Shown: positions 36,501 through 39,500 of the stretch, piece after piece
Layout of the letters: each line of letters starts with the position of its first letter
Position numbering within the stretch: position 1 is the first letter of the stretch
Source of the DNA: Escherichia coli
GTDB taxonomy: Bacteria; Pseudomonadota; Gammaproteobacteria; Enterobacterales; Enterobacteriaceae
Assembly: GCF_013315695.1 (NCBI RefSeq)
Contig: NZ_CP054353.1
DNA length: 64,000 nt
Reading direction: 5' to 3' (one strand)
Position numbers: made by a program

Positions 36501-39500
36501 CACCTTTTCCGGTAATTGTTGCCCCACCGGAAGCACTGACGCCGAAAGACGTATATCCTTTCTGCAGGGATGCAATATTCGCGGACAAATTTGCCAGCGG
36601 ACTACGATGACTGTAATAGGCATTAATCTGACGTTGCGATGTCAGTCCACCGCCACTGTTAAGGCCGGCGTTCAGGCTGTAGCTGTCCAGACCGTCATTG
36701 AACGTGTCAGTGTAGCCGGCCATATTCACATAACGGTCATTACTCATACTGCCACTGTAGCTCGCAGTCCCCGTCCCCAGCGGCACGGATATACGCAGGT
36801 AAGCAGAATCGTTATCACGCCCCAGATATTTAGACCTTGAGGCTGACAATCCAACCGCCACGCCCTGCAGTCCGAAAACATTAAAGTAGCGGTTGACGCT
36901 CACCGTATAATAGTCCGTTTTCCGTATATCCCAGTATGTCTGACGGCTGTACTGTAGGTTAAAAGAGGTGTTCCAGTCCGCCACGTTTTTATTCAGCGTA
37001 ACGGTATACATCTCTTTTTCCCGACTGCTGTAATCATTACGGTAGCGGGCGTTCAGGTACTGCTCCATGGTCATATAGTTTCGCTCTGAGAAACGATACC
37101 CGGCGAACGTAATGTCGGCATCCGCATTATCAAACCGTTTGGAGTAGCTAAGACGCCAGGATTTTCCCTGAAACGTTCTCTCTCCCTCAATACGGGCTAC
37201 TGACTGCGTGATATCAGCGGAAAGGGTCCCCGGCACACCCAGGTCCCAGCCGGCACCGGCTGCCAGTGCATTATAATCACCGGCAAGCACAGCCCCGCCA
37301 TACAGCGACCACTGGTTACTGAGCCCCCAGGACGCCTCTCCGGTCGCAAATACAGGCCCTTCGGTCTCATGCCCGTATCCGCGGGAACGACCGGAGACAA
37401 GTTTATACCGGACCTGTCCCGGACGCGTCAGATAAGGAACCGAGGCCGTATCGACCTGAAAGGTTTTCTTCCGTCCGTTCTGTTCAATAACCTCAACATC
37501 AAGACGTCCGCGAACTGAACTGTCCAGGTCCTGAATACTGAATGGCCCTGCGGGGACCATCGAGTCGTACAGCACCCGTCCCTGCTGCGACACCACAACA
37601 CGGGCATTAGTCTCCGCAATCCCGGTAATCTGCGGTGCATAGCCTCGCAGTCTGGGTGGCAGCATCCGGTCATCGCTTTCCAGGCTGGCTCCCGTATAAC
37701 TCCATGACCGGAATATATCTGAGTTGATATTATTCTCGCCCAGCGTCAGGTTTGCCCGCCATCGTGGAATGGCACGGAACAGATAAAAGCGACTCCATGT
37801 GAAATTTCTGTTTGTCGTTTTTTCCCCGTTGTAGCGGCTCTGCTCCTGGCTTCCCTGATAGTCAGCCCGCAGGCGCCAGGGCCCCAGATTCCCCCCCACA
37901 GTCCCGTTATAACTGAACTGATGAGAGTCTCCTCCCTGATAATTACGGGAAACCGTCCCGTTGAGGTTATAATCCAGCATCAGTCCGGGAATGCCGTCGT
38001 CCCAGCGTGAAGGAGGCAGCCAGGTGGCATCAGAATACTCAAGCCAGGCCTGCGGCATATTGATGCGTAATACGCCCGCTCCGGTATCAGGACGAATATC
38101 CACTCCCGGCAACCCATGAAAATCCGCACACTGACCATCATGCCAGTAAACAACTTTATCCAGAGATTCTGCTGTTAACCCCATCAGTCTGACCATATCT
38201 GATGTCAGACAGGCCTGTGGCAATTTTTTTCTGCCTTATCTCCTGACGACTGAGGTTCAACAAATGAAATCTGTAACGATGCGGGAGAAATACTTTGCCC
38301 GTTAACAATCACATCCAGAAGATATTGCCCCGGCAGAACATAACCGGCTTCTGAAAAACGGGTGAAGTCAATATTTTTCTTGTCCGCTGCGTCAAGTACA
38401 TCTGTATTAAACTCAACGGCACTGGCTGCGTTACAAAACAGAGACAACAATATCACACAGGTAATATTGTTGACTGCAAAAGGTATTCTGTCTTTCATTC
38501 CACGCATCACCAGATTCACAAAAAAGATAAATAACCGGACATCTCACCGGAGTGACTCACTCATAATCGACCCGGAATCCCAGCACGGCAAAATAATTTC
38601 CGGCTTCAAGTTTTTTTCCGTTTCGCACAATTCTGAGGGTGTAACCCAGCGCTTCTTCATTACCCGTCAATGGTATTGCAGGCATTACTTTCCCTGCCCG
38701 GGCAATATTTCCCCTGGCATCAGCTATCTGCAGATTAATGCCTTTTGCCTGACCGGATAAATTAAACTTATCCGGCGTTTCACCCCGGACACCATCGAAA
38801 GTCACCCTTATCCGGGAATCAGAGAAAAGGTTCCCACCCTGACTGTTAAATTCACAGTTCCTGAGCCGTAGGCTGAATTTTCTTTCAGGTCCGGAAAAAC
38901 CATTCTGTAAATCCCGTACCGGGGTTTCCCCCATATCGATAATCTGCCAGGCGTCTTCCATCGCCAGAGTACAGGCAGGTCTGACAACCTCACCATGAAA
39001 AGCAGCCCTGCCGTCCCACCATACGTGTTCTTCTCCCCAGTATTCAGGAAGGGACATGCCGGGCGGAGGAAATGGCTCTGAAGATACAGCATGAAGTAAT
39101 GTACTCCAGAAATACATCACAAACAGAACACAAAAATTCTTCATACCTTAAATGTCGTTGTCAGACACAGGGTGGGTCTTGCCTCACCCTGTAAAAATCA
39201 GATGAATTACTGGTAACTTAAATTAAAGGTTGCGACTGCAGAAAAAGCACCCTCAGTGACTTGGGCGTTATTGGCTGACGACTTCTTAACAATCGCAGTA
39301 TAATGCAGCACATTATCACCATCTTTCAGGGTATTAGCATCACCTTCTGTGCCATCGAAAGAAACGTTTTTACCTGCAGCCTGAACTACAATAGCCGTAC
39401 CTGTACCGCCGGTGGTGTCTAACTCATCACTATGGGCAGCAACTATTGGGCCAGTAAAAGCTAACTTCACCGTCCCTGCTTTTGCAGTACCACCTACAGC

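Follow-up and report, generated by a model that had tools for sequence, protein, structure and literature searches.

A frameshift in a run of adenines interrupts papC

In a stretch of 64,000 nucleotides (nt) of Escherichia coli DNA (contig NZ_CP054353.1, assembly GCF_013315695.1; hereafter the window, meaning that whole stretch), the pap operon for P fimbriae contains a papC gene, coding for the outer-membrane usher, that is interrupted by a one-nucleotide frameshift in a run of adenines. The gene lies on the minus strand from 38498 to 35989, a length of 2510 nt, and comprises the following features, given in window positions:

35989-38498, minus strand: papC pseudogene (P-fimbrial outer-membrane usher), labelled "frameshifted" by PGAP, the annotation pipeline, in NZ_LR898874.1 (JMX41_RS04430), and recognised here by restoration of its reading frame and by alignment with PDB 7LHG chain C
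38224-38230, minus strand: run of seven A (A7; T7 on the plus strand) at papC codons 90-92, site of the -1 frameshift
38205-38519, minus strand: N-terminal open reading frame (ORF), 104 residues if counted from an upstream GTG
38205-38498, minus strand: truncated N-terminal product, 97 residues from the real start, the ATG at 38498; Pfam PapC_N
35989-38223, minus strand: downstream ORF, 744 residues, with the rest of PapC_N, the Usher barrel and PapC_C

Read 5' to 3' on the minus strand, the site is GGA GAT AAG GCA GAA AAA AAT TGC CAC AGG CCT GTC TGA, and the reading frame past the A7 run closes at the TGA at 38207-38205. In intact papC alleles the run has eight A (A8), read as GAA AAA AAA for E90, K91 and K92. 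The difference is a fixed one and does not rest on statistics, which leaves no role for chance. The ORFs of 104 and 744 residues overlap by 19 nt immediately 3' of the run, and their translations are the N-terminal part and the remainder of one protein in two frames. When one A was added to the run, a single ORF of 836 residues was obtained with the junction DKAEKKLPQACLTSDMVRL (also given as GDKAEKKLPQACLTSDMVRL), and its product has 100% identity with WP_000654940.1, the intact PapC of strain KE40. A preliminary description of this DNA had reported a papC usher gene frameshifted at an A7 homopolymer, split into overlapping ORFs of 104 and 744 residues and restored by one extra A; the seven A as against A8 in intact homologues, the ORF list with its translations and the restored 836-residue ORF bear out all three statements.

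The last in-frame residue is Lys91 of the precursor (residue 64 in mature numbering), and the break lies within the N-terminal periplasmic domain. The 97-residue product therefore begins with residues 1-27, which precede the mature chain and presumably form the signal peptide, continues with 64 residues of that domain and ends with the out-of-frame residues NCHRPV. The remaining 735-744 codons of papC have no N-terminal signal sequence of their own.

Identity of the interrupted gene

Residues 28-836 of the restored protein align with the complete 809-residue mature PapC chain in PDB 7LHG (chain C) with a bit score of 1841, and the restored protein also matches structures of the PapC barrel and of the PapC C-terminal domain. 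Precomputed Pfam assignments place PapC_N on the first piece and PapC_N, Usher and PapC_C on the second, and the NCBIfam usher models match the restored PapC. The domain architecture and the full-length similarity are those of the usher family, and the gene stands beside papD and the pilin genes as ushers of this operon do. A single uninterrupted ORF with a signal peptide is lacking, and the gene is consequently filed as a pseudogene of the PapC/FimD usher family.

Relationship to strain MSB1_4I and other complete genomes

When 5,426 complete E. coli genomes were searched by megablast with a 661-nt query, one record matched exactly over the full length, NZ_LR898874.1 (strain MSB1_4I, from a rectal swab, Australia), and the other 39 matches listed span 662 nt, corresponding to A8. 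A 91-mer with A7 was likewise found exactly in one of 664 papC-bearing complete genomes, again NZ_LR898874.1, and for the A9 version of this 91-mer, with the flanks of the window, there was no exact match among the complete genomes.

The window is the reverse complement of approximately 886,918-950,918 of the MSB1_4I chromosome, with an identity of 99.99% and a difference of seven single-nucleotide polymorphisms (SNPs) and one insertion or deletion (indel) over 64 kb, at positions 62669, 57592, 37229, 36955, 36928, 7066, 5392 and 4400. These differences rule out that the window is the MSB1_4I record itself; as judged from the comparison of the two sequences, it is a very close relative, either a sister isolate or an independent assembly. 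The indel lies upstream of sat, where the window has A16 and MSB1_4I has A10-C-A6. Three of the seven SNPs are in papC, clustered within 300 bp, one of them being the G/V at the GVPGTLSAD motif, and this cluster may be a small recombination patch. All of the coding SNPs that were examined are synonymous.

Inheritance of the shortened run within one clone

The distinction between A7 and A8, here and below, is made on assembled genomes and contigs. The clone to which the window belongs was followed by the insertion sequence IS1 in papF and by the bases w33296T and w39267C, and A7 travels with these markers in at least seven further datasets. Both A7 and the IS1::papF junction are present in a JGI metagenome contig (L024) and in a SPAdes metagenome contig (L072; 40.7 kb, coverage 13). 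An ENA metagenome scaffold (L007) has A7 and one further SNP in common with MSB1_4I, and its contig stops before the IS1 site. Two further datasets (L010 and L012) have A7 and a further 13-bp deletion deeper in papC, to which an IS1-mediated deletion is added in L012; such damage on top of A7 is what a previously inactivated gene would be expected to show. The PacBio chromosome of an NCTC strain (L020, GCA_900448625.1) has A6, with IS1 in papF as in the rest of the clone and two more 1-nt insertions nearby, representing either more slippage or PacBio indel errors. In every dataset that reaches the site, IS1 in papF accompanies the A7 or A6 of papC.

According to the preliminary description, A8 in independent reads would have returned the usher gene to one ORF. 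With assemblies as a substitute for reads, A8 was seen in none of the clone members (the window, MSB1_4I, L007, L024, L072, L010 and L012, all with A7, and L020 with A6). The evidence favours A7 as a true inherited mutation and not a sequencing error, because the window and MSB1_4I, which are not identical, both carry it, because it recurs in independent datasets of the clone and because later lesions overlie it. As in other pseudogenes that result from slippage, the run has changed by one unit, its correction gives back the full-length protein, and the lesion is inherited and reproducible.

The degenerate pap operon and the order of its lesions

The papC lesion is one of several in the operon, for which the gene order was taken from the RefSeq annotation of the near-identical MSB1_4I record:

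31273-40932, minus strand: whole degenerate pap operon, with papI (divergent, on the plus strand), frameshifted papB, papA, papH, frameshifted papC, papD, papJ, papK, papE, papF with IS1, and frameshifted papG
40192-40199, minus strand: papB frameshift, with T8 on the coding strand in place of the T9 of intact papB (CAT TTT TTT TTA)
31981-31989, minus strand: papG frameshift, with T9 on the coding strand in place of the T8 of the intact AF14 allele
32331-33098, no strand assigned: IS1 in papF, substituting about 195 bp of the papF 3' end; marker of the clone

The papB frameshift leaves just one annotated ORF, a C-terminal one of 54 residues (39981-40145), and the papG frameshift divides PapG into pieces of 100 and 239 residues. 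The papF lesion combines the IS1 insertion with an adjacent deletion and is no simple insertion. The preliminary description had counted the papC lesion as the second homopolymer frameshift of the operon; the association with homopolymers holds and the count rises to three, namely papB (T9 to T8), papG (T8 to T9) and papC (A8 to A7). Among all mononucleotide runs of at least 6 nt in the operon, three had an ancestral length of at least 8 nt (papB T9, papG T8 and papC A8), and these coincide one for one with the homopolymer frameshifts; no change was seen in those runs of 6-7 nt for which a relative allowed a comparison.

The distribution of these lesions was compared with the pap operons L002, L003, L017 and L018 (KE40, AF14, NMBU-W13E19 and MS 21-1, sister strains that have this island too). 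The papB frameshift is common to all the relatives that still hold papB, and the papG frameshift to several of them. Among complete genomes, the papB T8 91-mer is found exactly in nine and the papG T9 91-mer in seven. Each relative has further damage of its own: IS3 in papA in KE40; IS1 in papH in AF14, in which papG is intact; a papA frameshift in MS 21-1; and in NMBU-W13E19 the loss of papI-papB-papA beside an IS629 fragment, which leaves no papB, together with IS1B in papG. The papG run keeps its T8 in AF14 and NMBU-W13E19 and is one base longer again in WP7-S17-ESBL-01, and the tract seems to keep drifting after the death of the gene.

Of all the lesions in the operon, the papB frameshift appears to be the oldest. 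By the same comparison of sequences, the papC frameshift and IS1 in papF rank as the youngest, both being specific to the clone of the window. The papC of the window has acquired just two changes since its frameshift, both synonymous, which also indicates that the papC lesion is young. The simplest reading of this pattern would be a parallel, independent and stepwise decay of one operon across sister strains.

Loss of papC by other routes was observed in two further pap loci. A nonsense mutation (CAG to TAG) three codons past an intact A8 is present in L026 (Logan SRR14629604), and an insertion sequence lies in the 5' part of papC in L022 (GCA_011751305.1).

The operon is located within a pathogenicity island at the pheV tRNA-Phe gene, together with iutA, sat and iha, beyond which the core genes speC to rdgB follow. 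MSB1_4I is annotated in this region (window approximately 19830-23790) with a phosphoethanolamine transferase gene that is split by ISEc22, an element of the IS66 family; numerous other transposase fragments and part of a TOTE conflict-system primase-domain gene are also found in the island.

Proposed course of papC inactivation

Taken together, these results make it very probable that papC was inactivated by an ancestral loss of one A from A8 in a single E. coli clone, which then inherited the lesion in an operon that was already disabled. The likely cause would be strand slippage during replication, occurring in the ancestor of the clone and passed on to its descendants. Translation from the normal start would halt after residue 91 and six wrong residues, and the barrel, plug and C-terminal domains, encoded without a signal peptide, would give no functional usher at the outer membrane, as far as can be told from the anatomy of the gene. 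Transcription of pap requires PapB. With the activator gene papB struck first, selection on the operon would have been relaxed and the different lineages would have gained different lesions, the longest mononucleotide runs being the first to slip. Loss of usher function and a P-fimbria-negative phenotype are thus predicted for the clone from its sequence.

Two points weigh against this interpretation. A small amount of full-length PapC could conceivably still arise through -1 ribosomal frameshifting or transcriptional slippage at the shortened run, and many other public contigs with A7 or A9 resemble homopolymer miscalls, the tract being also error-prone in sequencing.

Alternative explanations

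The papB T9, papC A8 and papG T8 runs could be regarded as hotspots that repeatedly, and perhaps reversibly, silence P fimbriae during gut carriage, with A7 being slightly leaky through the heptamer A AAA AAU; this proposal is unlikely. A related proposal, in which the same three runs form a slippage switch that turns P fimbriae ON and OFF recurrently, and possibly reversibly, in addition to the known epigenetic phase switch of pap, is very unlikely. The observations that recommend the switch are the slippage of all three runs of at least 8 nt in the operon and the recurrence of tract variants. The exact 97-residue truncated product is recorded on 69 contigs, as compared with at least 996 for one intact allele, and at least five papC SNP backgrounds have A7, while several others have A9. 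A reading of the 69 contigs as proof of a recurrent hotspot is weakened by the homopolymer miscalls, of the 454 type and others, in many of them. Cleaner tract variants on unrelated pap backgrounds are A7 in L008 and L111, the latter also with a 1-nt papH deletion outside any homopolymer, and A9 in L019, L021 and L025. An unselected metagenome scan with a loose variable-gap pattern gave, among the matches listed, 120 loci, of which 93 were chance matches and 27 were papC; two of these 27 papC contigs have A7 and 25 have A8, a rough estimate, and one of the two A7 contigs belongs to the clone of the window.

Against a switch, all clone members are OFF, with A7 or A6, and no revertant was observed among them, the nearest A8 relatives being devoid of the IS1 marker of the clone. 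The rarity of the exact A7 91-mer in papC-bearing complete genomes (only 1 of 664) and the absence of its A9 version from them point the same way, and errors of the sequencing technology account for much of the seeming recurrence. The lysine codons of papC are AAA in 22 cases and AAG in 4, and such a codon preference alone would yield an A8 run, giving no sign that the tract has been selected for. A run of 8 nt is also short for a contingency locus when mismatch repair is working. No evidence was found for a high switching rate or for a switch role of the papC tract, which is modestly slippage-prone like any A8 run and draws sequencing errors as well.

A sequencing or assembly artefact, whereby the true genome would have A8 and the run would have been undercalled by an error of the long-read, 454 or Ion Torrent style, has a lower probability still. 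Such errors do occur at this tract. The 454 draft of MS 124-1 (L006) shows no SNP against the complete MS 85-1 over 12.8 kb but lacks 1 nt in each of three homopolymers, including the papC tract; in Logan contigs with A7 (L009, L011 and L013-L015), G7 or G5 runs are shortened as well; and A9 contigs from three unrelated backgrounds (Logan; L023, L027 and L028) also lengthen the papJ G7 run. These miscalls of the papC tract and of nearby G runs in public drafts and contigs imply that database counts of the frameshift are inflated by artefacts. The sole indel between the window and MSB1_4I also falls in a long A run. On the other side, A7 co-segregates with the clone markers in assemblies that include Illumina-style metagenome ones (megahit and SPAdes), none of which has A8, and it lies beneath the later 13-bp and IS1-mediated deletions. 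Furthermore, the papC tract is the sole homopolymer length difference between the window and KE40, the closest A8 genome, over approximately 11 kb, and the core genes of the window and the 3.9-kb sat are all annotated as intact in MSB1_4I, which rules out an assembly-wide homopolymer error.

Finally, leaky recoding would mean that the canonical slippery heptamer A AAA AAU, brought into the zero frame by A7, allows some full-length PapC (K92N or wild type) to be made through a -1 ribosomal shift or through transcription with an added A. As an explanation of the locus this is very improbable: the GA[A AAA AAT] sequence does stand in the frame of the N-terminal ORF in the X XXY YYZ arrangement, a -1 shift there would enter the TTG CCA CAG frame, and a hairpin begins 7 nt downstream of the run (window 38150-38236, minus strand), but the fold predicted there does not surpass that of shuffled sequence (z = -1.1, with 28 of 200 shuffles folding equally well), the two-frame layout is not conserved, intact alleles being a single ORF (A8 in 25 of the 27 metagenome contigs and in the complete genomes listed), seven A are below the length for efficient transcriptional slippage, and papB, papF and papG are broken too, which makes leakiness irrelevant in this strain. 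The heptamer is a by-product of the deletion.

Significance and comparison with known systems

An ancestral slippage event inherited by one clone thus stands as the preferred explanation, and it is a routine kind of event, namely a fimbrial usher pseudogene formed by homopolymer slippage within the decay of an adhesin operon. The frameshift is already known in so far as papC of the near-identical MSB1_4I is flagged as frameshifted by RefSeq/PGAP; full-text literature searches gave no description of a papC homopolymer frameshift or of this tract, and nothing relevant on strain MSB1_4I. The clone should score as P-fimbria-negative although it would be "papC-positive" by PCR or gene-presence typing, and a virulence screen that scores only whether genes are present would assign it to the wrong class. 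The case also illustrates how a silenced operon decays, with the longest homopolymers slipping first and insertion sequences coming next, and it shows that counts of "recurrent" homopolymer frameshifts call for a check of the technology behind them. Beyond correct annotation, its significance is small.

The closest counterpart is the papC pseudogene of MSB1_4I (JMX41_RS04430), which shares the A7 run, IS1 in papF, the papB and papG frameshifts and the island. In comparison with PapC of uropathogenic E. coli (PDB 7LHG, 6CD2, 2VQI and 3FIP), the restored protein is of the same length class and has the same domains, and the order papA-H-C-D-J-K-E-F-G is the same, whereas the gene of the window is interrupted after codon 91 by the -1 frameshift.

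Slipped-strand phase variation is known at the poly-C tract of the Bordetella fim promoters and at the poly-G tract of Neisseria pilC. The papC tract resembles these loci in that a change of one unit in a run turns a pilus gene off, and it differs from them in being short (8 nt), in having A8 in the great majority of complete genomes and in showing no ON revertants in the clone.

Decay of adhesin operons is also known in commensal, host-adapted and asymptomatic-bacteriuria strains, examples being pap, foc and fim in E. coli 83972 and the usher pseudogenes of Salmonella Typhi. The operon of the window is like these cases of reductive decay in its multiple hits by frameshifts and insertion sequences and in the different lesions carried by related strains, and is nothing new in kind. 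It differs from them in that the succession of its lesions is directly legible, with papB hit first, papG second and papC and papF last.

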